Assembly (NCBI GenBank): GCA_964016885.1
Contig: OZ024744.1
Location: 116,126,001-116,190,000 of the forward strand
Length of the DNA stretch: 64,000 bases
Direction of reading: 5' to 3'
DNA from: Eledone cirrhosa
Lineage: Eukaryota
Within the stretch, counting starts at the first letter, position 1; the number at the start of each line of letters is the position of its first letter. Shown one piece after another: positions 7,664-64,000 of this stretch. The notes below the pieces were generated by a model. The model was not told where the DNA came from. It ran no database searches and saw only the letters and a list, made by a program, of their open reading frames with translations. A program made the position numbers and the translations under genes.

Positions 7664-7697
<34 letters not shown>

Positions 7698-29650: not shown

Positions 29651-29799
29651 CTCATATCTTGTCTCTCTCTCTCTATATATATATAATGTCTCTCGTATCT
29701 TGTCTCTCTCTCTATATATATATATAATGTCTCTCATAGCCTGTCTCTCTCTCTCTATATATATAATGTATCTCATATCTTGTCTCTCTCTCTATATAT

Positions 29800-37750: not shown

Positions 37751-38749
37751 GTCTCTCATATCTTGTCTCTCTCTCTATATATATATAATGTCTTTCATAT
37801 CTTGTCTCTCTCTCTATATATATAATGTCTCTCATATCTTATCTCTCTCTCTATATATATATAAAGTCTCTCATATCTTGTCTCTCTCTCTATATATAAT
37901 GTCTCTCATATCTTGTGTCTCTCTCTCTCTATATATTTAATGTCTCTCATATATTGTCTCTCTCTCTATATATATAATGTCTCTCAAATCTTGTCTCTCT
38001 CTCTCTCTATATATAATGTCTCTCATGTCTTGTCTCTCTCTCTATATATATATAATGTCTCTCATATTTTGTCTCTCTCTCTATATATATAATGTCTCTC
38101 ATATCTTGTCTCTCTCTCTATATATATAATGTCTCTCATATCTTGTCTCTCTCTATATATATAATGTCTCTCATATCTTGTCTCTCTCTCTATATATATA
38201 ATGTCTCTCATATCTTGTCTCTCTCTCTCTATATATATAATGTCTCTCATATCTTGTCTCTCTGTCTCTCTCTATATATAATGTCTCTCATATCTTGTCT
38301 CTCTCTCTCTATATATATATAAAGTCTCTCATATCTTGTCTCTCTCTCTATATACAATGTCTCTCATATCTTGTCTCTCTCTCTCTCTATATATATATAA
38401 TGTCTCTCATATCTTGTCTCTCTCTCTATATATATATAATGTCTCTCATATCTTGTCCCTCTCTCTCTATAAATAATGTTTCTCATATCTTGTCCCTCTC
38501 TCTCTATATATATATAATGTCTCTCATATCTTGTCTCTCTCTCTCTATATATATAATGTCTCTCATATCTTGTCTCTCTCTCTATATATATACAATGTCT
38601 CTCATATCTTGTCTCTTTCTCTATATATATATAATGTCTCTCATATCTTGTCTCTCTCTCTATATATATATAATGTCTCTCATATCTTGTCTCTCTCTCT
38701 ATATATATAATGTCTCTCATATCTTATCTCTCTCTCTATATATATATAA

Positions 38750-41700
38750 AGTCTCTCATATCGTGTCTCTCTCTCTATATATAATGTCTGTCTCTCATAT
38801 CTTGTGTCTCTCTCTTTCTATATATATATAATGTCTCTCATATCTTGTCTCTCTCTCTATATATATAATGTCTCTCATATCTTGTCTCTCTCTCTCTATA
38901 TATATAATGTCTCTCATATCTTGTCTCTCTCTCTATATATATAATGTCTCTCATATCTTGTATCTCTCTCTATATATATAATGTCTCACATATCTTGTCT
39001 CTCTCTATATATATATAATGTCTCTCATATCTTGTCTCTCTCTATATATATAATGTCTCTCATATCTTGTCTCTCTCTCTATATATATAATGTCTCTCAT
39101 ATCTTGTCTCTCTCTCTCTATATATATAATGTCTCTCATATCTTGTCTCTCTGTCTCTCTCTATATATAATGTCTCTCATATCTTGTCTCTCTCTCTATA
39201 TATATATAAAGTCTCTCATATCTTGTCTCTCTCTATATATACAATGTCTCTCATATCTTGTCTCTCTCTCTCTATATATATATAATGTCTCTCATATCTT
39301 GTCTCTCTCTCTATATATATATAATGTCTCTCATATCTTGTCTCTCTCTCTATATATATAATGTCTCTCATATCTTATCTCTCTCTCTCTATATATAATG
39401 TCTCTCATATCTTGTCTCTCTCTCTCTATATATATATAATGTCTCTCATATCTTGTCTCTCTCTCTATATGTATATAATGTCTCTCATATCTTGTCCCTC
39501 TCTCTCTCTCTATATATAATGTCTCTCATATCTTATCTCTCTCTCTCTATATATATAATGTCTCTCATATCTTGTCTCTGTCTCTCTCTATATATATAAT
39601 GTCTCTCATATCTTGTCTCTCTCTCTATATATATAATGTCTCTCATATCTTGTCTCTCTCTCTATATGTATATAATGAGAACTCATATCTTGTCTCTCTC
39701 TCTCTATATATATAATGTCTCTCATATCTTGTCTCTCTCTCTATATATATATAATGTCTCTCATATCTTGTCTCTCTCTCTCTATATATATAATGTCTCT
39801 CATATCTTATCTCTCTCTCTATATATATAATGTCTCTCATATCTTGTCTCTCTCTCTCTATATATATATAATGTCTCTCATATCTTGTCTCTCTCTCTAT
39901 ATGTATATAATGTCTCTCATATCTTGTCCCTCTCTCTCTGTATATAATGTCTCTCATATCTTGTCTCTCTCTCTATATATATAATGTCTCTCATGTATTG
40001 TCTCTCTCTCTCTATATATATAATGTCTCTCATATCTTGTCTCTCTCTCTATATATATATATAATGTCACTCATATCTTGTCTCTCTCTCTATATATGTA
40101 ATGTGTCTCATGACTTGTCTCTCTCTCTATATATATAATGTCTCTCATATCTTGTCTCTCTCTCTATATATATATAATGTCTCTCATATCTTGTCTCTCT
40201 CTCTCTATATATATAATGTCTCTCAAATCTTGTCCCTCTCTCTCTATATATATAATGTCTCTCATATATTGTCTCTCTCTCTCTATATATAATGTCTTTC
40301 ATATCTTGTCTCTCTCTCTATATATATATAATGTCACTCATATCTTGTCTCTCTCTCTATATATATATAATGTCTCTCATATCTTGTCTCTCTCTCTCTA
40401 TATATATAATGTCTCTCATATCTTGTCTCTCTCTCTATATATATAATGTCTCTCATATCTTGTCTCTCTCTCTCTATATATAATGTCTCTCATATCTTGT
40501 CTCTCTCTCTATTTATATAATGTCTCTCATATCTTGTCTCTCTCTCTCTCTATATATATATATAATGTCTCTCATATCTTGTCTCTCTCTCTATATATAT
40601 AATGTCTCTCATATCATGTCTCTCTCTCTATATATATAATGTCTCTCATATCTTGTCTCTCTCTTTATATATATAATGTCTCTCATATCTTGTCTCTCTC
40701 TCTCTATATATATATATAATGTCTCTCATATCTTGTCTCTCTCTCTATATATATAATGTCTCTCATATCTTGTCTCCATCTCTATATATATATATAATCT
40801 CTCTCATATCTTGTCTCTCTCTCTATATATATAATGTCTCTCATATCATGTCTCTCTCTCTATATATATAATGTCTCTCATATCTTGTCTCTCTCTTTAT
40901 ATATATAATGTCTCTCATATCTTGTCTCTCTCTCTATATATATATATAATGTCTCTCATATCTTGTCTCTCTCACTATATATATAATGTCTCTCATATCT
41001 TGTCTCTCTCTCTATACATATATATAATGTCTCTCATATCTTGTCTCTCTCTCTATATATATAATGTCTCTCATATCTTGTCTCTCTCTCTCTCTATATA
41101 TAATGTCACTCATATCTTGTCTCTCTCTCTATATATATAATGTCTCTCATATCTTGTTTCTCTCTCTATATATATATAATGTCTCTCATATCTTGTCTCT
41201 CTCTCTATATATATAATGTCTCTCATATCTTGTCTCTCTCTCTCTATATATATATATAATGTCTCTCATATCTTGTCTCTCTCTCTATATATATATATAA
41301 TGTCTCTCATATCTTGTCTCTCTCTCTATTTATATAATGTCTCTCATATCTTGTCTCTCTCTCTATATATATAATGTCTCTCATATCTTGTCTCTGTCTC
41401 TCTATATATATAATGTCTCTCATATCTTGTCTCTCTCTATATATATAATGTCTCTCATATCTTGTCCTCTCTCTCTATATATATAATGTCTCTCATATCT
41501 TGTCTCTCTCTCTCTATATATAATGTCTCTCATATCTTGTCTCTCTCTCTATATATATATAATGTCTCTCATATCTTGTCTCTCTCTCTCTATATATATA
41601 ATGTCTCTCATATCTTGTCTCTCTCTCTATATATATATAATGTCTCTCATATCTTGTCTCTCTCTCTATATATATATAATGTCTCTCATATCTTGTCTCT

Positions 41701-44700
41701 CTCTATATATATATAATGTCTCTCATATCTTGTCTCTCTCTCTCTATATATAATGTCTCTCATATCTTGTCTCTCTCTCTATATATATAATGTCTCTCAT
41801 ATCTTGTCTCTCTCTCTATATATATATATATATGTCTCTCATATCTTGTCTCTCTCTCTATATATATAATGTCTCTCATATCTTGTCTCTCTCTCTATAT
41901 ATAATGTCTCTCATATCTTGTCTCTCTCTCTATATATATAATGTCTCTCATATCTTGTCTCTCTCTCTCTATATATATATAATGTCTCTCATATCTTGTC
42001 TCTCTCTCTATATATAATGTCTATAATATCTTGTCTCTCTCTCTATATATATAATGTCTCTCATATCTTGTCTCTCTCTCTCTATATATATAATGTCACT
42101 CATATCTTGTCTCTCTCTCTATATATATAATGTCTCTCATATCTTGTTCTCTCTCTCTCTATATATATATATATGTCTCTCATATCTTGTCTCTCTCTCT
42201 CTATATATAATGTCTCTCATATCTTGTCTCTCTCTCTATATATATATATATAATGTCTCTCATATCTTGTCTCTCTCTCTCTCTATATATATAATGTCTC
42301 TCATATCTTGTCTCTCTCTCTATTTATATAATGTCTCTCATATCTTGTCTCTCTCTCTATATATATATAATGTCTCTCATATCTTGTCTCTCTCTCTCTA
42401 TATATATAATGTCTCTCATATCTTGTCTCTCTCTCTCTATATATATAATGTCTCTCATATCTTGTCTCTCTCTCTATATATATATAATGTCTCTCATATC
42501 TTGTCTCTCTCTCTATATATATAATGTCTCTCATATCTTGTCTCTCTCTCTCTATATATATAATGTCTCTCATATCTTGTCTCTCTCTCTCTCTATATAT
42601 AAATGTCTCTCATATCTTGTCTCTCTCTCTATATATATATAATGTCTCTCATATCTTGTCTCTCTCTCTATATATATAATGTCTCTCATATCTTATCTCT
42701 CTCTCTATATATATAATGTCTCTCATATCTTGTCTCTCTCTCTCTATATATATATAATGTCTCTCATATCTTGTCTCTCTCTCTTTATATATATAATGTC
42801 TCTCATATCTTGTCTCTCTCTCTATATATATATATAATGTCTCTCATATCTTGTCTCTCTCTCTATATATATAATGTCTCTCATATCTTGTCTCTCTCTC
42901 TCTATATATATATAATGTCTCTCATATCTTGTCTCTCTCTCTATATATATAATGTCTCTCATATCTTGTCTCTCTCTCTCTCTATATATAATGTCACTCA
43001 TATCTTGTCTCTCTCTCTATATATATAATGTCTCTCATATCTTGTTTCTCTCTCTATATATATATAATGTCTCTCATATCTTGTCTCTCTCTATATATAT
43101 AATGTCTCTCATATCTTGTCTCTCTCTCTCTATATATATATATAATGTCTCTCATGTCTTGTCTCTCTCTCTATATATATATATAATGTCTCTCATATCT
43201 TGTCTCTCTCTCTATTTATATAATGTCTCACATATCTTGTCTCTCTCTCTATATATATAATGTCTCTCATATCTTGTCTCTGTCTCTCTATATATATAAT
43301 GTCTCTCATATCTTGTCTCTCTCTATATATATAATGTCTCTCATATCTTGTCCTTCTCTCTCTATATATATAATGTCTCTCATATCTTGTCTCTCTCTCT
43401 CTATATATAATGTCTCTCATATCTTGTCTCTCTCTCTCTATATATATAATGTCTCTCATATCTTGTCTCTCTCTCTATATATATATAATGTCACTCATAT
43501 CTTGTCTCTCTCTCTATATATATATAATGTCTCTCATATCTTGTCTCTCTCTCTATATATATATAATGTCTCTCATATCTTGTCTCTCTCTATATATATA
43601 TAATGTCTCTCATATCTTGTCTCTCTCTCTCTATATATAATGTCTCTCATATCTTGTCTCTCTCTCTATTTATATAATGTCTCTCATATCTTGTCTCTCT
43701 CTCTATATATATATATATAATGTCTCTCATATCTTGTCTCTCTCTCTATATATATAATGTCTCTCATATCATGTCTCTCTCTCTATATATAATGTCTCTC
43801 ATATCTTGTCTCTCTCTCTATATATATAATGTCTCTCATATCTTGTCTCTCTCTCTATATATATATATAATGTCTCTCATATCTTGTCTCTCTCTCTATA
43901 TATAATGTCTATAATATCTTGTCTCTCTCTCTATATATATAATGTCTCTCATATCTTGTCTCTCTCTCTCTATATATATAATGTCACTCATATCTTGTCT
44001 CTCTCTCTATATATATAATATCTCTCATATCTTGTTTCTCTCTCTCTCTATATATATATATAATGTCTCTCATATCTTGTCTCTCTCTCTCTATATATAA
44101 TGTCTCTCATATCTTGTCTCTCTCTCTCTATATATATATATAATGTCTCTCATATCTTGTCTCTCTCTCTCTCTATATATATAATGTCTCTCATATCTTG
44201 TCTCTCTCTCTATTTATATAATGTCTCTCATATCTTGTCTCTCTCTCTCTATATATATAATGTCTCTCATATCTTGTCTCTCTCTCTCTCTATATATAAT
44301 GTCTCTCATATCTTGTCTCTCTCTCTATATATATATAATGTCTCTCATATCTTGTCTCTCTCTCTATATATATAATGTCTCTCATATCTTGTCTCTCTCT
44401 CTCTATATATATAATGTCTCTCATATCTTGTCTCTCTCTCTCTCTATATATATAATGTCTCTCATATCTTGTCTCTCTCTCTATATATATATAATGTCTC
44501 TCATATCTTGTCTCTCTCTCTATATATATAATGTCTCTCATATCTTATCTCTCTCTCTATATATATAATGTCTCTCATATCTTGTCTCTCTCTCTCTATA
44601 TATATATAATGTCTCTCATATCTTGTCTCTCTCTCTATATGTATATAATGTCTCTCATGTCTTGTCCCTCTCTCTCTCTATATATATAATGTCTCTCATA

Positions 44701-47700
44701 TCTTATCTCTCTCTCTCTATATATATATAATGTCTCTCATATCTTGTCTCTGTCTCTCTCTATATATATAATGTCTCTCATATCTTGTCTCTCTCTCTAT
44801 ATGTATATAATGAGAACTCATATCTTGTCTCTCTCTCTCTCTATATATAATGTCTCTCATATCTTGTCTCTCTCTCTATATATATATAATGTCTCTCATA
44901 TCTTGTCTCTCTCTCTCTATATATATAATGTCTCTCATATCTTATCTCTCTCTCTATATATATATAATGTCTCTCATATCTTGTCTCTCTCTCTCTCTCT
45001 ATATATAATGTCTCTCATATCTTGTCTCTCTCTCTATATGTATATAATGTCTCTCATATCTTGTCCCTCTCTCTCTGTATATAATGTCTCTCATATCTTG
45101 TCTCTCTCTCTCTATATATATATAATGTCACTCATATCTTGTCTCTCTCTCTATATATGTAATGTGTCTCATGACTTGTCTCTCTCTCTATATATATAAT
45201 GTCTCTCATATCTTGTCTCTCTCTCTATATATATATAATGTCTCTCATATCTTGTCTCTCTCTCTCTATATATATAATGTCTCTCATATCTTGTCCCTCT
45301 CTCTCTATATATATAATGTCTCTCATATCTTGTCTCTCTCTCTATATATATAATGTCTTTCATATCTTGTCTCTCTCTCTCTATATATATAATGTCACTC
45401 ATATCTTGTCTCTCTCTCTATATATATATAATGTCTCTCATATCTTGTCTCTCTCTCTCTCTATATATATAATGTCTCTCATATCTTGTCTCTCTCTCTA
45501 TATATATAATGTCTCTCATATCTTGTCTCTCTCTCTCTATATATAATGTCTCTCATATCTTGTCTCTCTCTCTATTTATATAATGTCTCTCATATCTTGT
45601 CTCTCTCTCTCTCTATATATATATATAATGTCTCTCATATCTTGTCTCTCTCTCTATATATATAATGTCTCTCATATCATGTCTCTCTCTCTATATATAT
45701 AATGTCTCTCATATCTTGTCTCTCTCTCTTATATATATAATGTCTCTCATATCTTGTCTCTCTCTCTATATATATATATAATGTCTCTCATATCTTGTCT
45801 CTCTCTCTATATATATAATGTCTCTCATATCTTGTCTCTCTCTCTATATATATAATGTCTCTCATATCTTGTCTCTCTCTCTATATATATATATAATGTC
45901 TCTCATATCTTGTCTCTCTCTCTATATATATAATGTCTCTCATATCTTGTCTCTCTCTCTCTATATATATATAATGACACTCATATCTTGTCTCTCTCTC
46001 TATATATATAATGTCTCTCATATCTTGTTTCTCTCTCTCTATATATATAATGTCTCTCATATCTTGTCTCTCTCTCTCTATATATAATGTCTCTCATATC
46101 TTGTCTCTCTCTCTCTATATATATATAATGTCTCTCATGTCTTGTCTCTCTCTCTATATATATATATAATGTCTCTCATATCTTGTCTCTCTCTCTATTT
46201 ATATAATGTCTCTCATATCTTGTCTCTCTCTCTATATATATAATGTCTCTCATATCTTGTCTCTCTCTCTCTCTATATATAATGTCTCTCATATCTTGTC
46301 TCTCTCTATATATATAATGTCTCTCATATCTTGTCCTTCTCTCTCTATATATATAATGTCTCTCATATCTTGTCTCTCTCTCTCTATATATAATGTCTCT
46401 CATATGTTGTCTCTCTCTCTATATATATATAATGTCTCTCATATCTTGTCTCTCTCTCTCTATATATATAATGTCACTCATATCTTGTCTCTCTCTATAT
46501 ATATATATAATGTCTCTCATATCTTGTCTCTCTCTCTATATATATATAATGTCTCTCATATCTTGTCTCTCTCTATATATATATAATGTCTCTCATATCT
46601 TGTCTCTCTCTCTCTATATATAATGTCTCTCATATCTTGTCTCTCTCTCTATATATATATAATGTCTCTCATATCTTGTCTCTCTCTATATATATATAAT
46701 GTCTCTCATATCTTGTCTCTCTCTCTCTATATATAATGTCTCTCATATCTTGTCTCTCTCTCTATTTATATAATGTCTCTCATATCTTGTCTCTCTCTCT
46801 ATATATATATATATAATGTCTCTCATATCTTGTCTCTCTCTCTATATATATAATGTCTCTCATATCATGTCTCTCTCTCTATATATAATGTCTCTCATAT
46901 CTTGTGTCTCTCTCTATATATATAATATCTCTCATATCTTGTCTCTCTCTCTCTATATATATATAATGTCTCTCATATCTTGTCTCTCTCTCTATATATA
47001 ATGTCTATAATATCTTGTCTCTCTCTCTATATATATAATGTCTCTCATATCTTGTCTCTCTCTCTATATATATATAATGTCACTCATATCTTGTCTCTCT
47101 CTCTATATATATAATGTCTCTCATATCTTGTTTCTCTCTCTCTCTATATATATATATAATGTCTCTCATATCTTGTCTCTCTCTCTATATATATAATGTC
47201 TCTCATATCTTGTCTCTCTCTATATATATATATATATAATGTCTCTCATATCTTGTCTCTCTCTCTCTCTCTATATATAATGTCTCTCATATCTTGTCTC
47301 TCTCTCTATTTATATAATGTCTCTCATATCTTGTCTCTCTCTCTCTATATATATAATGTCTCTCATATCTTGTCTCTCTCTCTATATATATATAATGTCT
47401 CTCATATCTTGTCTCTCTCTCTATATATATATAATGTCTCTCATATCTTGTCTCTCTCTCTATATATATATAATGTCTCTCATATCTTGTCTCTCTCTCT
47501 ATATATATAATGTCTCTCATATCTTGTCTCTCTCTCTCTATTTATATAATGTCTCTCATATCTTGTCTCTCTCTATATATATAATGTCTCTCATATCTTG
47601 TCCTTCTCTCTCTCTATATATAATGTCTCTCATATCTTGTCTCTCTCTCTCTATATATAATGTCTCTCATATCTTGTCTCTCTCTCTCTATATATATAAT

Positions 47701-50700
47701 GTCTCTCATATCTTGTCTCTCTCTCTCTATATATATAATGTCACTCATATCTTGTCTCTCTCTATATATATATATAATGTCTCTCATATCTTGTCTCTCT
47801 CTCTATATACATATAATGTCTCTCATATCTTGTCTCTCTCTATATATATATAATGTCTCTCATATCTTGTCTCTCTCTCTCTATATATAATGTCTCTCAT
47901 ATCTTGTCTCTCTCTCTATTTATATAATGTCTCTCATATCGTGTCTCTCTCTCTATATATAATGTCTGTCTCTCATATCTTGTGTCTCTCTCTCTCTATA
48001 TATATATAATGTCTCTCATATCTTGTCTCTCTCTCTATATATATAATGTCTCTCATATCTTGTCTCTCTCTCTCTATATATATAATGTCTCTCATATCTT
48101 GTCTCTCTCTCTATATATATAATGTCTCTCATATCTTGTATCTCTCTCTATATATATAATGTCTCACATATCTTGTCTCTCTCTATATATATATAATGTC
48201 TCTCATATCTTGTCTCTCTCTATATATATAATGTCTCTCATATCTTGTCTCTCTCTCTATATATATAATGTCTCTCATATCTTGTCTCTCTCTCTCTATA
48301 TATATAATGTCTCTCATATCTTGTCTCTCTGTCTCTCTCTATATATAATGTCTCTCATATCTTGTCTCTCTCTCTATATATATATAAAGTCTCTCATATC
48401 TTGTCTCTCTCTATATATACAATGTCTCTCATATCTTGTCTCTCTCTCTATATATATATATAATGTCTCTCATATCTTGTCTCTCTCTCTATATATATAT
48501 AATGTCTCTCATATCTTGTCTCTCTCTCTATATATATAATGTCTCTCATATCTTATCTCTCTCTCTCTCTATATATAATGTCTCTCATATCTTGTCTCTC
48601 TCTCTATATATATATATAATGTCTCTCATATCTTGTCTCTCTCTCTATATGTATATAATGTCTCTCATATCTTGTCCCTCTCTCTCTCTCTATATATAAT
48701 GTCTCTCATATCTTATCTCTCTCTCTCTCTATATATATAATGTCTCTCATATCTTGTCTCTGTCTCTCTCTATATATATAATGTCTCTCATATCTTGTCT
48801 CTCTCTCTATATATATAATGTCTCTCATATCTTGTCTCTCTCTCTATATGTATATAATGAGAACTCATATCTTGTCTCTCTCTCTCTATATATATAATGT
48901 CTCTCATATCTTGTCTCTCTCTCTATATATATATAATGTCTCTCATATCTTGTCTCTCTCTCTATATATATATAATGTCTCTCATATCTTATCTCTCTCT
49001 CTATATATATAATGTCTCTCATATCTTGTCTCTCTCTCTCTATATATATATAATGTCTCTCATATCTTGTCTCTCTCTCTATATGTATATAATGTCTCTC
49101 ATATCTTGTCCCTCTCTCTCTGTATATAATGTCTCTCATATCTTGTCTCTCTCTCTATATATATAATGTCTCTCATGTATTGTCTCTCTCTCTCTATATA
49201 TATAATGTCTCTCATATCTTGTCTCTCTCTCTATATATATATATAATGTCACTCATATCTTGTCTCTCTCTCTATATATGTAATGTGTCTCATGACTTGT
49301 CTCTCTCTCTATATATATAATGTCTCTCATATCTTGTCTCTCTCTCTATATATATATAATGTCTCTCATATCTTGTCTCTCTCTCTCTATATATATAATG
49401 TCTCTCAAATCTTGTCCCTCTCTCTCTATATATATAATGTCTCTCATATATTGTCTCTCTCTCTCTATATATAATGTCTTTCATATCTTGTCTCTCTCTC
49501 TATATATATATAATGTCACTCATATCTTGTCTCTCTCTCTATATATATATAATGTCTCTCATATCTTGTCTCTCTCTCTCTATATATATAATGTCTCTCA
49601 TATCTTGTCTCTCTCTCTATATATATAATGTCTCTCATATCTTGTCTCTCTCTCTCTATATATAATGTCTCTCATATCTTGTCTCTCTCTCTATTTATAT
49701 AATGTCTCTCATATCTTGTCTCTCTCTCTCTATATATATATATAATGTCTCTCATATCTTGTCTCTCTCTCTATATATATAATGTCTCTCATATCATGTC
49801 TCTCTCTCTATATATATAATGTCTCTCATATCTTGTCTCTCTCTTTATATATATAATGTCTCTCATATCTTGTCTCTCTCTCTCTATATATATATATAAT
49901 GTCTCTCATATCTTGTCTCTCTCTCTATATATATAATGTCTCTCATATCTTGTCTCCATCTCTATATATATATATAATCTCTCTCATATCTTGTCTCTCT
50001 CTCTATATATATAATGTCTCTCATATCATGTCTCTCTCTCTATATATATAATGTCTCTCATATCTTGTCTCTCTCTTTATATATATAATGTCTCTCATAT
50101 CTTGTCTCTCTCTCTATATATATATATAATGTCTCTCATATCTTGTCTCTCTCTCTATATATATAATGTCTCTCATATCTTGTCTCTCTCTCTATATATA
50201 TATATAATGTCTCTCATATCTTGTCTCTCTCTCTATATATATAATGCCTCTCATATCTTGTCTCTCTCTCTCTCTATATATAATGTCACTCATATCTTGT
50301 CTCTCTCTCTATATATATAATGTCTCTCATATCTTGTTTCTCTCTCTATATATATATAATGTCTCTCATATCTTGTCTCTCTCTCTATATATATAATGTC
50401 TCTCATATCTTGTCTCTCTCTCTCTATATATATATATAATGTCTCTCATGTCTTGTCTCTCTCTCTATATATATATATAATGTCTCTCATATCTTGTCTC
50501 TCTCTCTATTTATATAATGTCTCTCATATCTTGTCTCTCTCTCTATATATATAATGTCTCTCATATCTTGTCTCTGTCTCTCTATATATATAATGTCTCT
50601 CATATCTTGTCTCTCTCTATATATATAATGTCTCTCATATCTTGTCCTTCTCTCTCTATATATATAATGTCTCTCATATCTTGTCTCTCTCTCTCTATAT

Positions 50701-53700
50701 ATAATGTCTCTCATATCTTGTCTCTCTCTCTATATATATATAATGTCTCTCATATCTTGTCTCTCTCTCTATATATATATAATGTCTCTCATATCTTGTC
50801 TCTCTCTCTATATATATATAATGTCTCTCATATCTTGTCTCTCTCTATATATATATAATGTCTCTCATATCTTGTCTCTCTCTCTCTATATATAATGTCT
50901 CTCATATCTTGTCTCTCTCTCTATTTATATAATGTCTCTCATATCTTGTCTCTCTCTCTCTATATATATATATAATGTCTCTCATATCTTGTCTCTCTCT
51001 CTATATATATAATGTCTCTCATATCATGTCTCTCTCTCTATATATAATGTCTCTCATATCTTGTCTCTCTCTCTATATATATAATGTCTCTCATATCTTG
51101 TCTCTCTCTCTCTATATATATATAATGTCTCTCATATCTTGTCTCTCTCTCTATATATAATGTCTATAATATCTTGTCTCTCTCTCTATATATATAATGT
51201 CTCTCATATCTTGTCTCTCTCTCTCTATATATATAATGTCACTCATATCTTGTCTCTCTCTCTATATATATAATGTCTCTCATATCTTGTTTCTCTCTCT
51301 CTCTCTATATATATATAATGTCTCTCATATCTTGTCTCTCTCTCTCTATATATAATGTCTCTCATATCTTGTCTCTCTCTCTATATATATATATATAATG
51401 TCTCTCATATCTTGTCTCTCTCTCTCTCTATATATATAATGTCTCTCATATCTTGTCTCTCTCTCTATTTATATAATGTCTCTCATATCTTGTCTCTCTC
51501 TCTATATATATATAATGTCTCTCATATCTTGTCTCTCTCTCTCTATATATATAATGTCTCTCATATCTTGTCTCTCTCTCTCTCTATATATAATGTCTCT
51601 CATATCTTGTCTCTCTCTCTATATATATATAATGTCTCTCATATCTTGTCTCTCTCTCTATATATATAATGTCTCTCATATCTTGTCTCTCTCTCTCTAT
51701 ATATATAATGTCTCTCATATCTTGTCTCTCTCTCTCTCTATATATAAAATGTCTCTCATATCTTGTCTCTCTCTCTATATATATATAATGTCTCTCATAT
51801 CTTGTCTCTCTCTCTATATATATAATGTCTCTCATATCTTATCTCTCTCTCTATATATATAATGTCTCTCATATCTTGTCTCTCTCTCTCTATATATATA
51901 TAATGTCTCTCATATCTTGTCTCTCTCTCTTTATATATATAATGTCTCTCATATCTTGTCTCTCTCTCTATATATATATATAATGTCTCTCATATCTTGT
52001 CTCTCTCTCTATATATATAATGTCTCTCATATCTTGTCTCTCTCTCTATATATATATATAATGTCTCTCATATCTTGTCTCTCTCTCTATATATATAATG
52101 TCTCTCATATCTTGTCTCTCTCTCTCTATATATAATGTCACTCATATCTTGTCTCTCTCTCTATATATATAATGTCTCTCATATCTTGTTCTCTCTCTCT
52201 ATATATATAATGTCTCTCATATCTTGTCTCTCTCTATATATAATGTCTCTCATATCTTGTCTCTCTCTCTCTATATATATATAAATGTCTCTCATGTCTT
52301 GTCTCTCTCTCTATATATATATATAATGTCTCTCATATCTTGTCTCTCTCTCTATTTATATAATGTCTCTCATATCTTGTCTCTCTCTCTATATATATAA
52401 TGTCTCTCATATCTTGTCTCTGTCTCTCTATATATATAATGTCTCTCATATCTTGTCTCTCTCTATATATATAATGTCTCTCATATCTTGTCCTTCTCTC
52501 TCTATATATATAATGTCTCTCATATCTTGTCTCTCTCTCTCTATATATAATGTCTCTCATATCTTGTCTCTCTCTCTATATATATATAATGTCTCTCATA
52601 TCTTGTCTCTCTCTCTCTATATATATAATGTCACTCATATCTTGTCTCTCTCTCTATATATATATAATGTCTCTCATATCTTGTCTCTCTCTCTATATAT
52701 ATATAATGTCTCTCATATCTTGTCTCTCTCTATATATATATAATGTCTCTCATATCTTGTCTCTCTCTCTCTATATATAATGTCTCTCATATCTTGTCTC
52801 TCTCTCTATTTATATAATGTCTCTCATATCTTGTCTCTCTCTCTATATATATATATAATGTCTCTCATATCTTGTCTCTCTCTCTATATATATAATGTCT
52901 CTCATATCATGTCTCTCTCTCTATATATAATGTCTCTCATATCTTGTCTCTCTCTCTATATATATAATGTCTCTCATATCTTGTCTCTCTCTCTATATAT
53001 ATATATAATGTCTCTCATATCTTGTCTCTCTCTCTATATATAATGTCTATAATATCTTGTCTCTCTCTCTATATATATAATGTCTCTCATATCTTGTCTC
53101 TCTCTCTCTATATATATAATGTCACTCATATCTTGTCTCTCTCTCTATATATATAATATCTCTCATATCTTGTTTCTCTCTCTCTCTATATATATATATA
53201 ATGTCTCTCATATCTTGTCTCTCTCTCTCTATATATAATGTCTCTCATATCTTGTCTCTCTCTCTATATATATATATATAATGTCTCTCATATCTTGTCT
53301 CTCTCTCTCTCTATATATATAATGTCTCTCATATCTTGTCTCTCTCTCTATTTATATAATGTCTCTCATATCTTGTCTCTCTCTCTATATATATATAATG
53401 TCTCTCATATCTTGTCTCTCTCTCTCTATATATATAATGTCTCTCATATCTTGTCTCTCTCTCTCTCTATATATAATGTCTCTCATATCTTGTCTCTCTC
53501 TCTATATATATATAATGTCTCTCATATCTTGTCTCTCTCTCTATATATATAATGTCTCTCATATCTTGTCTCTCTCTCTCTATATATATAATGTCTCTCA
53601 TATCTTGTCTCTCTCTCTCTATATATATATAATGTCTCTCATATCTTGTCTCTCTCTCTATATATATATAATGTCTCTCATATCTTGTCTCTCTCTCTAT

Positions 53701-56700
53701 ATATATAATGTGTCTCATATCTTATCTCTCTCTCTATATATATAATGTCTCTCATATCTTGTCTCTCTCTCTCTATATATATATAATGTCTCTCATAACT
53801 TGTCTCTCTCTCTATATGTATATAATGTCTCTCATATCTTGTCCCTCTCTCTCTCTATATATATAATGTCTCTCATATCTTATCTCTCTCTCTCTATATA
53901 TATATAATGTCTCTCATATCTTGTCTCTGTCTCTCTCTATATATATAATGTCTCTCATATCTTGTCTCTCTCTCTATATGTATATAATGAGAACTCATAT
54001 CTTGTCTCTCTCTCTCTATATATATAATGTCTCTCATATCTTGTCTCTCTCTCTATATATATATAATGTCTCTCATATCTTGTCTCTCTCTCTCTATATA
54101 TATAATGTCTCTCATATCTTATCTCTCTCTCTATATATATAATGTCTCTCATATCTTGTCTCTCTCTCTCTCTATATATATAATGTCTCTCATATCTTGT
54201 CTCTCTCTCTATATGTATATAATGTCTCTCATATCTTGTCCCTCTCTCTCTGTATATAATGTCTCTCATATCTTGTCTCTCTCTCTCTATATATATATAA
54301 TGTCACTCATATCTTGTCTCTCTCTCTATATATGTAATGTGTCTCATGACTTGTCTCTCTCTCTATATATATAATGTCTCTCATATCTTGTCTCTCTCTC
54401 TATATATATATAATGTCTCTCATATCTTGTCTCTCTCTCTCTATATATATAATGTCTCTCATATCTTGTCCCTCTCTCTCTATATATATAATGTCTCTCA
54501 TATCTTGTCTCTCTCTCTATATATATAATGTCTTTCATATCTTGTCTCTCTCTCTCTATATATATAATGTCACTCATATCTTGTCTCTCTCTCTATATAT
54601 ATATAATGTCTCTCATATCTTGTCTCTCTCTCTCTATATATATATAATGTCTCTCATATCTTGTCTCTCTCTCTATATATATAATGTCTCTCATATCTTG
54701 TCTCTCTCTCTCTATATATAATGTCTCTCATATCTTGTCTCTCTCTCTATTTATATAATGTCTCTCATATCTTGTCTCTCTCTCTCTCTATATATATATA
54801 TAATGTCTCTCATATCTTGTCTCTCTCTCTATATATATAATGTCTCTCATATCATGTCTCTCTCTCTATATATATAATGTCTCTCATATCTTGTCTCTCT
54901 CTTTATATATATAATGTCTCTCATATCTTGTCTCTCTCTCTATATATATATATAATGTCTCTCATATCTTGTCTCTCTCTCTATATATATAATGTCTCTC
55001 ATATCTTGTCTCTCTCTCTATATATATAATGTCTCTCATATCTTGTCTCTCTCTCTATATATATATATAATGTCTCTCATATCTTGTCTCTCTCTCTATA
55101 TATATAATGTCTCTCATATCTTGTCTCTCTCTCTATATATATATAATGACACTCATATCTTGTCTCTCTCTCTATATATATAATGTCTCTCATATCTTGT
55201 TTCTCTCTCTCTATATATATAATGTCTCTCATATCTTGTCTCTCTCTCTCTATATATAATGTCTCTCATATCTTGTCTCTCTCTCTCTATATATATATAA
55301 TGTCTCTCATGTCTTGTCTCTCTCTCTATATATATATATAATGTCTCTCATATCTTGTCTCTCTCTCTATTTATATAATGTCTCTCATATCTTGTCTCTC
55401 TCTCTATATATATAATGTCTCTCATATCTTGTCTCTCTCTCTCTCTATATATAATGTCTCTCATATCTTGTCTCTCTCTATATATATAATGTCTCTCATA
55501 TCTTGTCCTTCTCTCTCTATATATATAATGTCTCTCATATCTTGTCTCTCTCTCTCTATATATAATGTCTCTCATATGTTGTCTCTCTCTCTCTATATAT
55601 ATAATGTCTCTCATATCTTGTCTCTCTCTCTCTATATATATAATGTCACTCATATCTTGTCTCTCTCTATATATATATATAATGTCTCTCATATCTTGTC
55701 TCTCTCTCTATATATATATAATGTCTCTCATATCTTGTCTCTCTCTATATATATATAATGTCTCTCATATCTTGTCTCTCTCTCTCTATATATAATGTCT
55801 CTCATATCTTGTCTCTCTCTCTATTTATATAATGTCTCTCATATCTTGTCTCTCTCTCTATATATATATATATAATGTCTCTCATATCTTGTCTCTCTCT
55901 CTATATATATAATGTCTCTCATATCATGTCTCTCTCTCTATATATAATGTCTCTCATATCTTGTCTCTCTCTCTATATATATAATGTCTCTCATATCTTG
56001 TCTCTCTCTCTCTATATATATATAATGTCTCTCATATCTTGTCTCTCTCTATATATATAATGTCTATAATATCTTGTCTCTCTCTCTATATATATAATGT
56101 CTCTCATATCTTGTCTCTCTCTCTCTATATATATAATGTCACTCATATCTTGTCTCTCTCTCTATATATATAATGTCTCTCATATCTTGTTTCTCTCTCT
56201 CTCTCTCTATATATATAATGTCTCTCATATCTTGTCTCTCTCTCTCTATATATAATGTCTCTCATATCTTGTCTCTCTCTCTATATATATATATATAATG
56301 TCTCTCATATCTTGTCTCTCTCTCTCTCTATATATATAATGTCTCTCATATCTTGTCTCTCTCTCTATTTATATAATGTCTCTCATATCTTGTCTCTCTC
56401 TCTCTATATATATAATGTCTCTCATATCTTGTCTCTCTCTCTATATATATATAATGTCTCTCATATCTTGTCTCTCTCTCTATATATATATAATGTCTCT
56501 CATATCTTGTCTCTCTCTCTATATATATATAATGTCTCTCATATCTTGTCTCTCTCTCTATATATATAATGTCTCTCATATCTTGTCTCTCTCTCTCTAT
56601 ATATATAATGTCTCTCATATCTTGTCTCTCTCTATATATATAATGTCTCTCATATCTTGTCCTTCTCTCTCTATATATATAATGTCTCTCATATCTTGTC

Positions 56701-57000
56701 TCTCTCTCTCTATATATAATGTCTCTCATATCTTGTCTCTCTCTCTATATATATATAATGTCTCTCATATCTTGTCTCTCTCTCTCTATATATATAATGT
56801 CACTCATATCTTGTCTCTCTCTATATATATATATAATGTCTCTCATATCTTGTCTCTCTCTCTCTATATATATATAATGTCTCTCATATCTTGTCTCTCT
56901 CTATATATATATAATGTCTCTCATATCTTGTCTCTCTCTCTCTATATATAATGTCTCTCATATCTTGTCTCTCTCTCTATTTATATAATGTCTCTCATAT
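38750..57000 (+). repeat. Tandem higher-order duplication, period ~9.18 kb (2 copies), with internal sub-repeats
   Basis: ATCGTG..AATGTCTGTCTC ~38760/47938; TGAGAACTC 39676/48858 and 44811/53988; GTCTCCATC ~40772/49952. Confidence 0.88.
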
Positions 57001-59358
57001 CTTGTCTCTCTCTCTCTCTATATATATATAATGTCTCTCATATCTTGTCTCTCTCTCTCTATATATATAATGTCTCTCATATCATGTCTCTCTCTCTATA
57101 TATAATGTCTCTCATATCTTGTCTCTCTCTCTATATATATAATGTCTCTCATATCTTGTCTCTCTCTCTCTATATATATATAATGTCTCTCATATCTTGT
57201 CTCTCTCTCTATATATAATGTCTATAATATCTTGTCTCTCTCTCTATATATATAATGTCTCTCATATCTTGTCTCTCTCTCTCTATATATATAATGTCAC
57301 TCATATCTTGTCTCTCTCTCTATATATATAATGTCTCTCATATCTTGTTTCTCTCTCTCTCTCTATATATATATAATGTCTCTCATATCTTGTCTCTCTC
57401 TCTATATATATAATGTCTCTCATATCTTGTCTCTCTCTCTATATATATATATATAATGTCTCTCATATCTTGTCTCTCTCTCTCTCTATATATATAATGT
57501 CTCTCATATCTTGTCTCTCTCTCTATTTATATAATGTCTCTCATATCTTGTCTCTCTCTCTATATATATATAATGTCTCTCATATCTTGTCTCTCTCTCT
57601 ATATATATATAATGTCTCTCATATCTTGTCTCTCTCTCTATATATATATAATGTCTCTCATATCTTGTCTCTCTCTCTATATATATATAATGTCTCTCAT
57701 ATCTTGTCTCTCTCTCTATATATATAATGTCTCTCATATCTTGTCTCTCTCTCTATATATATATAATGTCTCTCATATCTTGTCTCTCTCTCTCTCTATA
57801 TATAATGTCTCTCATATCTTGTTTCTCTCTCTCTATATATATATATAATGTCTCTCATATCTTGTCTCTCTCTCTATATATATAATGTCTCTCATATCTT
57901 GTCTCTCTCTATATATATATATAATGTCTCTCATATCTTGTCTCTCTCTCTATATATATATAATGTCTCTCATATCTTGTCTCTCTCTCTCTATATATAT
58001 ATAATGTCTCTCATATCTTGTATCTCTCTCTCTATATATATATAATGTCTCTCATGTCTTGTCTCTCTCTCTATATATATATAATGTCTCCCATATCTTG
58101 TCTCTCTCTCTATATATATATAATGTCTCTCATATCTTGTCTCTCTCTCTCTATATATAATGTCTCTCATATCTTGTCTCTCGCTCTATATATATAATGT
58201 CTCTCATATCTTGTCTCTCTCTCTATATATATAATGTCTCTCATTTCTTGTCTCTCTCTCTCTATATATATAATGTCTCTCATATCTTGTCTCTCTCTCT
58301 CTCTATATATATATATATAATGTCTCTCATATCTTGTCTCTCTCTCTCTATATATATATAATGTCTCTCATATCTTATCTCTCTCTCTATATATATAATG
58401 TCTCTCATATCTTGTCTCTCTCTCTATATATATATATAATGTCTCTCATATCTTGTCTCTCTCTCTATATGTATATAATGTCTCTCATATCTTGTCCCTC
58501 TCTCTCTGTATATAATGTCTCTCATATCTTGTCTCTCTCTCTATATATATAATGTCTCTCATGTCTTGTCTCTCTCTCTATATATATATAACGTCTCTCA
58601 TATCTTGTCTCTCTCTCTCTATATATATATAATGTCACTCATATCTTGTCTCTCTCTCTATATATGTAATGTCTCTCATGACTTGTCTCTCTCTCTATAT
58701 ATATAATGTCTCTCATATCTTGTCTCTCTCTCTCTATATATATAATGTCTCTCATATCTTGTCTCTCTCTCTCTATATATATAATGTCTCTCATATCTTG
58801 TCTCTCTCTCTCTATATATAATGTCTTTCATATCTTGTCTCTCTCTCTATATATATATAATGTCACTCATATCTTGTCTCTCTCTATATATATATATAAT
58901 GTCTCTCATATCTTGTCTCTCTCTCTATATATATATAATGTCTCTCATATCTTGTCTCTCTCTCTATATATATAATGTCTCTCATATCTTGTCTCTCTCT
59001 CTATATATATAATGTCTCTCATATCTTGTCTCTCTCTCTATTTATATAATGTCTCTCATATCTTGTCTCTCTCTCTCTCTATATATATATATAATGTCTC
59101 TCATATCTTGTCTCTCTCTATATATATATAATGTCTCTCATATCATGTCTCTCTCTCTATATATATATAATGTCTCTCATATCTTGTCTCTCTCTTTATA
59201 TATATAATGTCTCTCATATCTTGTCTCACTCTCTATATATATATATAATGTCTCTCATATCTTGTCTCTCTCTCTATATATATAATGTCTCTCATATCTT
59301 GTCTCTCTCTCTCTATATATATATAATGTCTCTCATATCTTGTCTCTCTCTCTATATC

Positions 59359-59413
59359 TGTTAGAACACGAAAAGTGTGAAACAACAGAATGTTCACTTT
59401 TCGTGTTCTAACA
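59359..59413. repeat. 5'-terminal hairpin: 19-bp perfect inverted repeat with 17-nt loop
   Basis: TGTTAGAACACGAAAAGTG (59359-59377) is the exact reverse complement of CACTTTTCGTGTTCTAACA (59395-59413). Confidence 0.95.
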
Positions 59414-59769
59414 TATATGCCTAGCTTCTTTAAAAATTTTTCGGGGATAGCCGTGGTGGTGGTGATCGTATGTCATTGGCTAATTTTCAACCAATCAGAG
59501 TACCTCTCTCTATATCTCTTCCACTGTTACTTACGCCTGTTTCTCTCTATCTGTTCCGTCTCTATATATATCTCTTACTCTTTCGCTTTGCACTCCTCCC
59601 CTTCAATACCATCTCTCCCCCTCTCTATATATTTGTTACTCTATTGCTGCACGCTCCTCTCCTTCAATATATCAATTACACACGCTTTACACTCCTTTAT
59701 CCCCAGCGCCCCTATATATACACCCCCACCTCTCCCGCATCTATATTTTAATGTACCGTTGCACCGTGA

Positions 59770-59870
59770 ATATATGTGTCTATATATATATACATATATA
59801 TTGTATATACACATTCATGTATGTGTATACACACTCATGTATGTATATACACTGGTTTTATGTGTGTATT
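59770..59870. repeat. Degenerate (TA)/(TG)/(CA) microsatellite tract
   Basis: Alternating purine-pyrimidine low-complexity sequence (TATATGTGTCTATATATATATACATATATA...GTATGTATACAC). Confidence 0.7.
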
Positions 59871-60245
59871 GTAAATTTGTACTGTTAAAACACGAAACTA
59901 ACATTCGATCGACACTTTGATTACCTGTACAGGCAATAGTTATTAGAATGCTGTTGAAGTGTGTATATATTTTTGGGGGACATCCTGTATATACACACAT
60001 TATATATAATACAATAAACAGATAAATACACACATATATATATGAGCTTATTTAATTATAAATATTGTGAATTTTTAACTCAGTTCAATTATATATATAA
60101 ATGGTTTCTACAGGACTAGAACTGTTTCATTCGAAAGAAATCATCATAATATTGAGAGGGGGGACTAGATAAAATATTTCAAATCAAATGTGTATAAGTT
60201 ATAAGTTAAAATGTATAAATAGAGACGATAGTGGAGGTATATCTG

Positions 60246-60322
60246 TTTAGTGGAACAGTAGACGATAGAATTAAATACAGACGATAATCTCCCTTTAATG
60301 AAACAGCAGACGATAGAATTAA
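60246..60322 (+). repeat. Short direct repeat, 2 x 29 bp, period 48
   Basis: TTTAGTGGAACAGTAGACGATAGAATTAA (60246-60274) vs TTTAATGAAACAGCAGACGATAGAATTAA (60294-60322), 26/29 identical. Confidence 0.85.
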
Positions 60323-60350
60323 GGCAATTTAAATTTTAAGCATTTGCATT

Positions 60351-60403
60351 TTTGCCTTTCATCGTTACGGGGTCGATAAAATAAAGTACCAGTAATACAC
60401 TGT
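60351..60403 (+). mobile_element. SINE central-domain fragment
   Basis: TTTGCCTTTCATCGTTACGGGGTCGATAAAATAAAGTACCAGT resembles, from recall, the conserved core of abundant octopus tRNA-derived SINEs. 24 bp are identical to 61306-61329. Confidence 0.65.
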
Positions 60404-60762
60404 CACTAGACGACTTTCAAATTGAATTGTTGGTTCCATTTCTTTAGTATTTTCAATTGTAGTTATCTACTTAAAAAGCGTTACACGGTTAGAGACATAA
60501 TTCGTAAGTTATATCTTCCCTATTAAACCATTGCATTATTTCGCCTACAATAGAACAAAAATGAAATGTTCTTTAAAGAAACAGGAATATAACTTTATAA
60601 AAAAAAAAGTTGCATCCGCTTCTTTTATCATTGATAATTTTTTCGTTTTAATATTAATTGTTTTTTGTAGTTGTTTATATTAAAAATCTTACTGTAATAT
60701 TTACTTAAACGAAGGCAAACATCTAAACTTATAGATTAATCTTGAGCGAAGGACTAGATAAA

Positions 60763-60771
60763 TCTCTCTCC

Positions 60772-60806
<35 letters not shown>
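60763..60806 (+). repeat. Compound (TC)~12(TA)10 microsatellite inside the insert
   Basis: TCTCTCTCCCTCTCTCTCTCTCTC followed by (TA)10. Confidence 0.92.
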
Positions 60807-61184
60807 AACGAAGAATGATAAAATTTCAAGCAAAGAGTTTAATTAGGTATATTTTGTAATATTATTAACTAATTATTATAATTAACGCGCATATTTTGCT
60901 ATCCTCAAACACGTTTACACATGGCATGAAATATAACTAATCCGAGATGGCTAGGTTTCATCTTCTAACTGGATATACGAAATCCATTATGTCTTGACAA
61001 CAACATGAGGTAACATTATGTTATTCACAGACACACTTTGTACACTGTTCCATATCAGAATGTATTTCCTTCGTCACATTCACAAACAGTATTGAAAATA
61101 TGTTCTTCGGCAAATAAAAATGTTTTGTTCATAATATTTCAACTAGCGATTGCTCTACTCCACGCACGACCACCATAAATTAAT

Positions 61185-61375
61185 GACCAGCTCAACACAA
61201 GTATTGGTAGAGCGTCAGACACCATGCTTTGCAGTATTGTTATGGTCCTTTGCATTCTAAGTTCAAATCCTGCCGAGGTTAACTTCGACTTTCATACTTA
61301 CTAATTCGATAAAATAAAGTACCAGTAATGGACTGCCGTAATGGATTTGTGCCGAAAAATAGAAACACTATTAAT
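61185..61375 (+). mobile_element. Degenerate tRNA-derived SINE (ends approximate)
   Basis: tRNA-like head (AGCTCA...TTGGTAGAGCGTCAGAC), Pol III B-box GTTCAAATCC at 61261-61270, then core CTTTCAT..TCGATAAAATAAAGTACCAGT and a TTGTGCC..AGAAAC tail. Confidence 0.68.
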
Positions 61376-61923
61376 GTGCAATAAGAGCAAAATATAACGA
61401 CATTGCTCAATTATTTTATCTAATGTTGTAATAACACAAGGAAATGTTGTTTGTGTATTTTTTTTTATATTTGCTCATAGGCTTTTACAATTTCGCTCAG
61501 CCAACAACTATTAAAAAGTGAGTTGCTTAAGATAACAATTTAATCACAAATTGTTGCTATCTTTTAATACACTCCAACAAGTCATCAAATTATGTACAAT
61601 AAAAACAAATCTTATTAATTTGCTCAGGGAATATAAAGAAAATGTATATACACTGATAATTGCAATTGTATGTAAATATTTTGTTTTTGTATTGTATATT
61701 TTATGTTTTCTATTATGTATAATATATTGATTTAATATTGATTGTTTTTTGTAGTTGTTTATATTAAAAGTCTGAAAATATTTTTATACATCTTACACTA
61801 ATATTTATAAGATAATTTATAATAACAATTACATAATCTAATTACATTACAACGATAATTTATTATTAATATATATCCTGTTTAACTAGAGTTATTACAA
61901 GCGTTGCCTTAAAAAAATATTAA

Positions 61924-62880
61924 ACTAGACATGAAAAATGCGCAAGCTCAAAAGTGCCACAGAATGTTATAATAAACCTTCAAAAGTGTGAGACTAGAGT
62001 TGTTGCTAAAAAATATTGTAATCATTATATATCGTACATTCTGTGGCATCCTTTATAAAAATAGCTTAAACCAACGAAGCCTTTATTTTTACGCTATTTC
62101 ACTTAGTTAATTCTTAGAGTGTAACATATAAAAATAAATACATCTATGTTTAATGTAATAACAGCTATAAATAATTACGTAATATTATTATCATATACTC
62201 ATAGTAACAAAATAATTGTGTTGAAACTTAATATGATGCTTATATGAACGATCAAATCTATAATGATAATTTCTTAAATATACTAATAGTAAAATAATTT
62301 AGTTATCTATTGTTACATTTTCATAGAACTATAATATTAACAATCGTATTGCATTATCAAATTTTTATCACTACAAACTTTCATATTGGAATTACCTTAA
62401 GCCACTTATTATTACTTCGCTTTCGTACTTTTACAGCTGTAGATATTGCGCTGTATCTTATATCTAATATCAATATCTCGTGGTAATTTGCATGAAGTGT
62501 AAAATAGGTTTATTAATAACTTTAATATGAAATGTATTATACAGGGCTGCGGAGTCGGCCAAAAATTGACTGGCTCCAACTCAGGATCCGATACTCCATT
62601 ATTTCCTAAATTTCAGCTCCGCAGCTCTGTTATTATATTAATTAATTTATTTTATAGTTGTAAATGATATTTTTATATGTTACACTCTAAGAATTAACTA
62701 AGTGAAATAGCGTAAAAATAAAGGCTTCGTTGGTTTAAGCTATTTTTATAAAGGATGCCACAGAATGTACGATATATAATGATTACAATATTTTTTAGCA
62801 ACAACTCTAGTCCCACACTTTTGAAGGTTTATTATAACATTCTGTGGCACTTTTGAGCTTGCGCATTTTTCATGTCTAGT
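61924..62880. repeat. Long inverted repeat (foldback): 213-bp arms 61924-62136 and 62668-62880, 531-bp spacer
   Basis: Manual reverse-complement comparison gives 212/213 identity, with a single mismatch at 61991 (GTGTGAGAC vs GTGTGGGAC). Confidence 0.96.
62542..62629. mobile_element. 88-bp hAT-like MITE
   Basis: TIRs CAGGGCTGCGGAG / CTCCGCAGCTCTG (12/13 complementary), flanked by 8-bp near-duplications GTATTATA (62534-62541) and TTATTATA (62630-62637). CAG ends with an 8-bp TSD are typical of hAT elements. Confidence 0.75.
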
Positions 62881-64000
62881 ATATAATGTCTCTCATATCT
62901 TGTCTCTCTCTCTATATATATATAATGTCACTCATATCTTGTCTCTCTCTCTATATATATAATGTCTCTCATATCTTGTTTCTCTCTCTATATATATATA
63001 ATGTCTCTCATATCTTGTCTCTCTCTCTATATATATAATGTCTCTCATATCTTGTCTCTCTCTCTCTATATATATATATAATGTCTCTCATGTCTTGTCT
63101 CTCTCTCTCTATATATATATAATGTCTCTCATATCTTGTCTCTCTCTCTATTTATATAATGTCTCTCATATCTTGTCTCTCTCTCTATATATATAATGTC
63201 TCTCATATCTTGTCTCTCTCTCTCTATATATATAATGTCTCTCATATCTTGTCTCTCTCTCTATATATAATGTCTCTCATATCTTGTCCCTCTCTCTCTA
63301 TATATATAATGTCTCTCATATCTTGTCTCTCTCTCTCTATATATAATGTCTCTCATATCTTGTCTCTCTCTCTATATATATATAATGTCTCTCATATCTT
63401 GTCTCTCTCTCTCTATATATATAATGTCACTCATATCTTGTCTCTCTCTATATATATATATAATGTCTCTCATATCTTGTCTCTCTCTCTATATATATAT
63501 AATGTCTCTCATATCTTGTCTCTCTCTCTATATATATAATGTCTCTCATATCTTGTCTCTCTCTCTATTTATATAATGTCTCTCATATCTTGTCTCTCTC
63601 TCTATATATATATATATAATGTCTCTCATATCTTGTCTCTCTCTCTATATATATAATGTCTCTCATATCATGTCTCTCTCTCTATATATAATGACTCTCA
63701 TATCTTGTCTCTCTCTCTATATATATAATGTCTCTCATATCTTGTCTCTCTCTCTCTATATATATAATGTCTCTCATATCTTGTCTCTCTCTCTATATAT
63801 AATGTCTATAATATCTTGTCTCTCTCTCTATATATATAATGTCTCTCATATCTTGTCTCTCTCTCTATATATATATAATGTCACTCATATCTTGTCTCTC
63901 TCTCTATATATATAATGTCTCTCATATCTTGTTTCTCTCTCTCTATATATATATATATAATGTCTCTCATATCTTGTCTCTCTCTCTCTATATATAATGT
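62880..64000 (+). repeat. Continuation of the same satellite array after the insertion, open at the right edge
   Basis: Same monomer, orientation and right-domain variants (AATGTCACTC, TATTTATAT, ATATCATG, TGTCTATAAT). Confidence 0.99.

Follow-up and report, generated by a model that had tools for sequence, protein, structure and literature searches.

A long inverted copy of its own 3' end within a gene-less Helitron-like element of Eledone cirrhosa

The window, the whole 64,000-nt stretch of DNA analysed here, is almost all 37-39-bp satellite, broken by a single 3,523-bp insert, and the last 955 bp of this insert form a foldback in which the 3' end of the insert is present twice, in opposite orientations, around a spacer (Table 1). 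On present evidence the foldback is real, multi-copy and old, and it does not represent a new class of element. Our favoured reading, held with modest confidence, is that the inverted repeat is a fixed part of a gene-less, 3.5-kb Helitron-like element moving by rolling-circle copying, that its inner arm is the 3' end of a sister element inserted backwards, and that the two arms were later made identical. The case shows that a rolling-circle-type element can retain, in several species, a long and homogenised inverted repeat of its 3' end, as a persistent form of an intermediate that is treated as transient in the literature examined.

Table 1. Features of the window; positions are counted from its first letter, and A/T denotes insertion between A and T.
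Feature	Positions	Strand	Basis or remark
Satellite array, left	1..59356	+	37-39-bp monomer, ~1,530 copies; final base is the A of the A/T insertion site
5'-terminal hairpin, strong: 24-nt arms, 17-nt loop	59354..59418	+	-22.2 kcal/mol, z -8.4, 0/200 shuffles
Helitron-like element, 3,523 bp, non-coding, multi-copy, TC...CTAG	59357..62879	+	Boundaries, open frames, run content
Direct second copy of 5'-terminal motif, 15/16 nt	59882..59897	+	Sequence comparison
Fragment of very high-copy, presumably SINE-like host repeat	60351..60402	+	Depth peak, loose ends, direct repeat with 61284-61335
Internal direct repeat, copy 1 (85% to copy 2)	60623..60689	+	p=0.0005
Longer fragment of the same presumed SINE-like repeat	61200..61342	+	Bins 61125-61362; loose ends at 61200 and 61342
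Internal direct repeat, copy 2	61708..61773	+	p=0.0005
Left flank	61806..61923	.	Joined to left arm in young and old copies; extra minus-strand CTAG at 61886
Left arm: last 212 nt of the element plus T, as an internal inverted copy	61924..62136	-	blastn; joints bridged by contigs
Spacer, 531 nt	62137..62667	.	Between arms
Miniature TIR element nested in spacer, 88 bp	62542..62629	.	13-nt TIRs, 1 mismatch; flanks 7/8 nt alike; z -3.5
Right arm: last 212 nt, with CTAG at 62876-62879, plus target T	62668..62880	+	blastn; contig ends
Subterminal stretch	62837..62858	+	13-nt inverted repeat with 62756-62768; weak 4-bp hairpin site
Satellite array, right: resumes	62880..64000	+	Repeat composition

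The arms are reverse complements over 213 nt with one mismatch (61991/62813; blastn E 1.5e-108) and lie 531 bp apart, exactly as a preliminary description of this DNA had placed them, and of the 39 inverted-repeat pairs in the window no other is both long and near-perfect. As RNA, the unit has a predicted folding energy of -449 kcal/mol, against -169 +/- 6 for 20 shuffles (z -45). The same description was right that the setting is the 3' end of a Helitron-like insert and that the unit lacks a target-site duplication (TSD): none of 2-12 nt surrounds it at three boundary choices, an absence that is uninformative if the unit was captured. The two halves of the spacer have no significant inverted similarity to each other (p=0.71), and their inner 100 nt give p=0.03 as one of 14 post hoc tests, a value on which no weight is placed. 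An Rfam search returned 11 matches, every one to a microRNA model and well short of the gathering score; no match lies in the arms or spacer. At 61880-61925 (in the flank) and 61988-62030 (in the arm), two minus-strand motifs that resemble each other end in CTAG (p=0.018, post hoc); they are possibly successive 3' ends produced by read-through.

The foldback was followed in the contigs of four of the 24 listed sequencing runs (X1, X5, X8 and X9), which carry four organism labels and come from four studies; one of them could be the source of the window, but not all. The counts below rest on the rows listed in each table (40 of 137 variant rows, 15 of 261 joints, 24 of 1,029 loose ends and 32 of 76,723 pieces), and a joint was counted as bridged only with 31 letters on each side. 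Under this rule the joint between flank and left arm is bridged by X1 record 6 (61206-62007, one difference) and by the diverged X5 records 14 and 15, the joint between left arm and spacer by X9 record 32 (depth 5), and the joint between spacer and right arm by the diverged X5 record 16. X1 record 7 and X8 record 21, the latter touching the junction of left flank and left arm, have only 30 letters at their joints and were excluded.

The preliminary description had asked for raw reads to exclude an artefact, and the contigs of other public runs speak for a real foldback, since they bridge both ends of the left arm and the joint between spacer and right arm. A fold-back read chimera or an assembly artefact would be in keeping with the fact that no contig among the pieces listed spans the whole unit or this copy's satellite joint; against it, contigs from runs with other organism labels and from other studies bridge three internal joints, some of them in diverged copies, and a chimera would not give the same joints in unrelated runs. 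The arm contigs, moreover, are found at double depth and break exactly at the arm boundaries, X1 record 8 beginning at 62668 and X8 record 24 stopping at 62880. Exact breaks of this type are how repeats behave in an assembly graph. An artefact is thus extremely improbable. Pattern scans for further copies gave one match in metagenome contigs and three in viral contigs, all only to an 18-20-nt pattern and attributable to chance, and none in the other scans.

The insert begins with TC (T59357-C59358), preceded by A, and ends with a CTAG of the CTRR type at 62876-62879, followed by T. When its flanks are joined without it, they restore an intact satellite 40-mer that is found 202 times in the window, which indicates A/T insertion without a TSD, with TA flanks on both sides at this locus. 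Since the TA runs of the satellite vary from 3 to 9 units, a TA duplication is compatible with this locus taken alone; it is disfavoured overall because the common 5' piece in X5 (depth 812) begins at A59356, one base before TC ('from_end' calibrated on three rows), and not at TA. In X1 a contig runs unbroken from the outer arm into the left flank, and of the 2,300 depth-units of the last bin just ~150 lack an explanation, so that most right ends in this run would lack the present satellite flank. Taken together, these contig ends, the 5' start in X5 and the right ends in X1, point to dispersed A/T insertions. None of the 22 stop-to-stop frames of at least 45 aa in the insert looks coding by eye. 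Seven of the 24 listed runs, under four organism labels and from three studies, contain 60-86% of the insert's sampled words; seven others with small shares were left aside. None of the runs listed is an RNA run, which says nothing about expression.

The features that define canonical Helitrons were taken from PMC11417382 and PMC4588551, as far as the available passages of these papers describe them. Non-autonomous HLE1 elements, in the parts of PMC4778049 and PMC11417382 that deal with the derivatives of Helibat and Helraiser, share with the insert the 5' TC, the 3' CTAG and the A/T site, as well as a non-coding body, captured host scraps and many dispersed copies. In contrast to HLE1 as these excerpts portray it, the present copy has no significant 16-20-nt hairpin 10-15 nt before CTAG (z +0.46 and +0.3 to +1.2), and it carries both a strong 5' hairpin, which is not an HLE1 feature, and, directly at its terminus, the 3' end repeated in inverted orientation over 213 nt. 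A weak 4-bp hairpin forms only with the older majority letter at 62849 and is itself non-significant (z -0.9 to -1.6, p 0.08-0.18). Judged from its letters, the element would work like an HLE1 Helitron (TC, CTAG, A/T); because the 3' hairpin is not found, it is described as Helitron-like and not placed as a member.

A 5' stem-loop (here 59354-59418, z -8.4) is shared with HLE2, the group of Helitron2, Helentron/HINE/DINE-1, proto-Helentron and HLE2-reverse, according to passages of PMC4067079, PMC5148889 and PMC11417382, and proto-Helentrons have a 3' CTAG and an A/T site, as here. Unlike the HLE2 elements of these passages, the insert sits in A/T and not in T/T, it has a faint inverted likeness of 10-16 nt between its ends in place of a clear 12-16-nt asymmetric TIR pair, and its arms are ~15 times longer than HLE2 inverted repeats. 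Among 14 post hoc tests, those of the likeness between the 5' and 3' ends gave p=0.002 and p=0.036, and 1.4% of 6,850 internal 25-mers score equally. The motif of the 5' hairpin arm faintly resembles the reverse complement of the 3' end (13/16 nt), and a separate, perfect 10-nt match joins 59385-59394 and 62836-62845.

Whether the 955-bp unit moves by itself can be read from depth; depths here are summed contig depths, not copy numbers, and ratios between near-identical pieces within one run are informative. In X1 the arm has a depth of 41.4, the spacer 20.4, and the flank plus upstream 25.3. X8 gives 108 for the arm, 46 for the flank, 44 and 71 for the spacer and 44 upstream, with 6-15 for pieces further 5'. 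Copies with the window's letters in X5 reach 1,077 in the flank (four rows), 1,217 in the spacer (eight of ten listed rows, 62480 and 62666 being dropped as sites where the window letter is absent or private) and 593-1,166 in the upstream contigs, and both arms together reach 2,219 at the cleanest site and 5,440 and 8,730 at two others, where the window letter is carried by some older copies too. The young class therefore has flank, spacer, upstream region and arm at ~1:1:1:2, and by these short-read contigs free units make up at most ~15% of it.

The unit does have the terminal inverted repeats of a TIR element or MITE (213 nt, one mismatch), and its symmetric ends, the X5 spacer at ~13% above the flank and the one X8 spacer contig at 71 against a flank of 46 could be taken as signs that it is an independently mobile CTAG...CTAG foldback made from two Helitron 3' ends, as the preliminary description had offered for an option. 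Copies of the spacer at independent sites with different flanks are not indicated, spacer depth being close to left-flank depth in X1, X5 and X8, and there is no spacer excess in X1 or in the old class. All three pieces bridging the left CTAG, among those listed, retain the same flank. The 955-bp unit also lacks a 5' LTS, which Helraiser needs according to the relevant passage of PMC4778049. Independent mobility is therefore very unlikely, and that option is not supported, spacer depth not being clearly above left-flank depth in young or old copies. With the arms at roughly double the depth of spacer, left flank and upstream region in three runs, the unit is, on present evidence, fixed cargo. 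As for the minus-strand CTAG followed by T at 61925/61924, which the same description took for an end of its own, the letters are there, and the unchanged flank of the bridging pieces speaks against a terminus in use.

In addition to the young copies, X5 contains older ones that form a class 85-95% alike across ~61,720-62,880. Records 14 and 15, with 33 and 26 differences in ~230 nt, both run through the left CTAG and record 16 through the inner right joint, and the spacer is tiled by pieces of this class. The foldback layout thus appears old, its contiguity in these copies being pieced together from overlaps. The miniature TIR element in the spacer, which we take to be hAT-like, is old as well, since a diverged X5 piece spans it. 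In the old class the spacer has a depth of ~5,000, the flank ~7,700 and the arms ~35,000, an excess from which it follows that most old arm-like copies would belong to the ends of other elements. Depth in this class falls from ~40,000 at 62160 to ~9,000 at 62227, and the inner continuations of the arms in X5 are unequal (40,400 at 62160 against 17,920 at 62666; 31 contigs). Opposite-strand joints in X5, from 62126-62133 to 62743, become intelligible when placed on a single arm: some of the older copies would have 65-72 nt of the inner arm duplicated in tandem. A second subfamily in X1 (depth 18.4) has the arm in common from ~62750.

The near-identity of the young arms is more recent than this layout. 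Young copies differ from the old majority at 12 listed positions in 649 nt of flank plus spacer, a rate at which ~7.9 differences between the arms would be expected, and one is observed (Poisson P 0.003, a rough value from the rows listed). Both young arms carry the same new letters, which are absent from most old arms. At 61955/62849 the window letter occurs only in the young class, and an old piece that bridges the left joint appears, from its end distance, to carry the other letter. Since the young arms share letters that old arms lack and differ far less than expected, one arm was most likely copied onto the other after the foldback arose.

These observations fit an origin by self-insertion in opposite orientation, a fourth route that is absent from the options of the preliminary description. 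Such self-insertion of Helitrons has already been proposed (PMC5148889, in the part available). A RepHel transposase from an autonomous partner would nick the element at the 5' TC, displace the plus strand and stop at the outer CTAG. A sister element inserted backwards near the terminus would have supplied the inner arm as its own 3' end, and this inner end, lying on the opposite strand, would be read through and carried as cargo, because only the plus strand is transposed in Helitrons, as stated in a passage of PMC6431247. The arm excess among old-letter copies is what would be expected of an arm that forms the end of an abundant parent family. The identity of the arms would come from conversion between close inverted copies, in the chromosome or in the displaced single strand, where they would zip into a 213-bp panhandle with CTAG at its base; a single conversion event in the founder of the young subfamily would suffice. 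The right end is cleaved in vitro on both strands, and the 3' end of Helitrons is dispensable and readily, often replaced (both from the accessible text of PMC4778049); by analogy, cleavage on both strands could lead to truncation at the inner CTAG.

Several points stand against self-insertion: the 5' end of the sister element was not located in the spacer, old-class depth drops between 62160 and 62227, the 3' hairpin of the window copy is non-significant as described above, the strong 5' hairpin is foreign to HLE1, an autonomous partner was not seen, and in X5 the spacer excess over the flank and the two arm sites that exceed ~2,200 deviate from a strict 1:2 pattern. The composite Helitrons formed by opposite self-insertion in PMC5148889 (Fig. 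8 legend) resemble the present element in having an internal reversed terminus within a larger unit that moves with its outer ends. Their inner termini are proposed in that legend to decay or be deleted, whereas the inner 3' end here persists across species and is identical to the outer one.

The third option of the preliminary description, a TIR element that supplied the 3' end, can be spelled out as follows: the arms would be the 213-bp TIRs of a cut-and-paste foldback or MITE (MULE- or FB-like) captured long ago, whose CTAG was adopted as the 3' end; the right TSD would have been left behind and arm identity kept later by conversion, as in Galileo. This route would explain why the symmetry ends exactly at the element end, why there is no convincing terminator hairpin and why no TSD is seen, and it is in line with the ~5-30-fold rise of old-class depth in X5 over roughly 61,720-62,880. 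The old spacer, at ~5,000 against 7,700, is not above the left flank, so the unit did not spread alone, and the inner continuations at 62160 and 62666 are unequal where TIR elements should give one each. No DDE superfamily is known to us to have CTAG as terminal signature, which also counts against capture. Long-TIR elements do swap sequence between arms, as passages of PMC4168063 on Galileo report for its TIRs, and Galileo-type foldback transposons (PMC4168063; PMC3573991) resemble the unit in their long near-identical arms, non-coding interior and arm-to-arm sequence transfer; the passages of PMC3573991 at hand contain no statement on arm conversion. In Galileo-type elements, to judge from these excerpts, the arms form both ends of the element itself, with a TSD around them, whereas here both arms lie at one end of a larger element, with no TSD. 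A captured TIR element is consequently a possible but rather unlikely source of the arms.

Another route would be the birth of a 3' end de novo, in which an ancestor without terminator copied a resident left arm up to its CTAG by a template switch, during rolling-circle copying or break repair, and so gained the right arm, with a similar later switch refreshing it. A switch of this kind accounts for a repeat whose limit is exactly CTAG, of the two inner continuations the left type is the more abundant, and new Helitron 3' ends arise often (PMC4778049, in the sections available). It is nevertheless unlikely: diverged copies already contain the joint between spacer and right arm (X5 record 16), at a depth of 17,920 that exceeds the old spacer's, so that it cannot stem from a recent single event, and none of the three routes to new 3' ends in those sections of PMC4778049 is an inverted switch. 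The version in the preliminary description, if taken as a recent one-off duplication by template switching, is contradicted, as copies with a divergence of 11-14% already have the outer-left and inner-right joints; the identity of the arms nevertheless requires that one was copied from the other. Captured-TIR and template-switch origins both also require this later arm copying.

A further, decidedly doubtful proposal concerns function: the 213-bp panhandle may have replaced the small terminator hairpin, with the arms zipping up while the helicase displaces the plus strand, the stem closing exactly as the terminal CTAG arrives and one arm being repaired from the other in each round. Structure-templated repair of one arm from the other is familiar from viral terminal repeats. 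The proposal agrees with the fact that both arms of the subfamily that then spread have lost the weak hairpin. If it is true, a giant foldback would both define and maintain the end of this Helitron-type family; if the panhandle is a mere passenger fixed by one conversion event, the matter is of importance for repeat curation only. Structure-based annotators would likely label the 955-bp unit a MITE and split the element. The element further provides a natural system in which to ask what defines a Helitron 3' end and whether conversion between inverted repeats is driven by single-stranded intermediates.

The foldback had also been put forward as an undescribed architecture, a claim that stands in part: in the open-access literature, judged mostly from listings, no described family carries its own Helitron 3' end a second time as a long, homogenised inverted repeat, but the model of self-insertion is already present in the accessible part of PMC5148889, the only such precedent found there. 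A curated annotation for octopus comprises 84 Helitron families, as given in the excerpt of PMC13282606, and this family may be among them.

Upstream of the foldback, the insert is a mosaic of host-repeat scraps. Mosaics of this kind are typical of Helitron capture. The bin 60292-60410 has a summed depth of 3e5 in X1 and 7e6 in X5, with many loose ends at 60350-60402, and the high-copy fragments 60351-60402 and 61200-61342 resemble octopus SINEs, so that we presume them to be SINE-like. Their motifs had no match in the papers searched or in the searched supplements of PMC9115989 (files 5-8 apart) or PMC13282606. Further high-copy scraps lie at ~59850-60050 and 60106-60146. The idea that the insert is a chain of homologous 3' modules was rejected, save for the pair at 60623 and 61708, because the other homology tests were non-significant: left flank against arm gave p=0.68, 61700-61890 and 60600-60760 against spacer end plus arm gave p=0.47 and p=0.06, and narrower retests gave p=0.16 and 0.065. 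Pyrimidine-rich stretches at 59500-59670 and 60761-60806 are loosely like the satellite monomer and of low complexity. The satellite itself contains higher-order duplications (11169-21315, 38817-46420 and 51306-51737), with exact 400-mers recurring at offsets of 2,386, ~3,900-3,980, ~9,140-9,180 and 1,883 nt.
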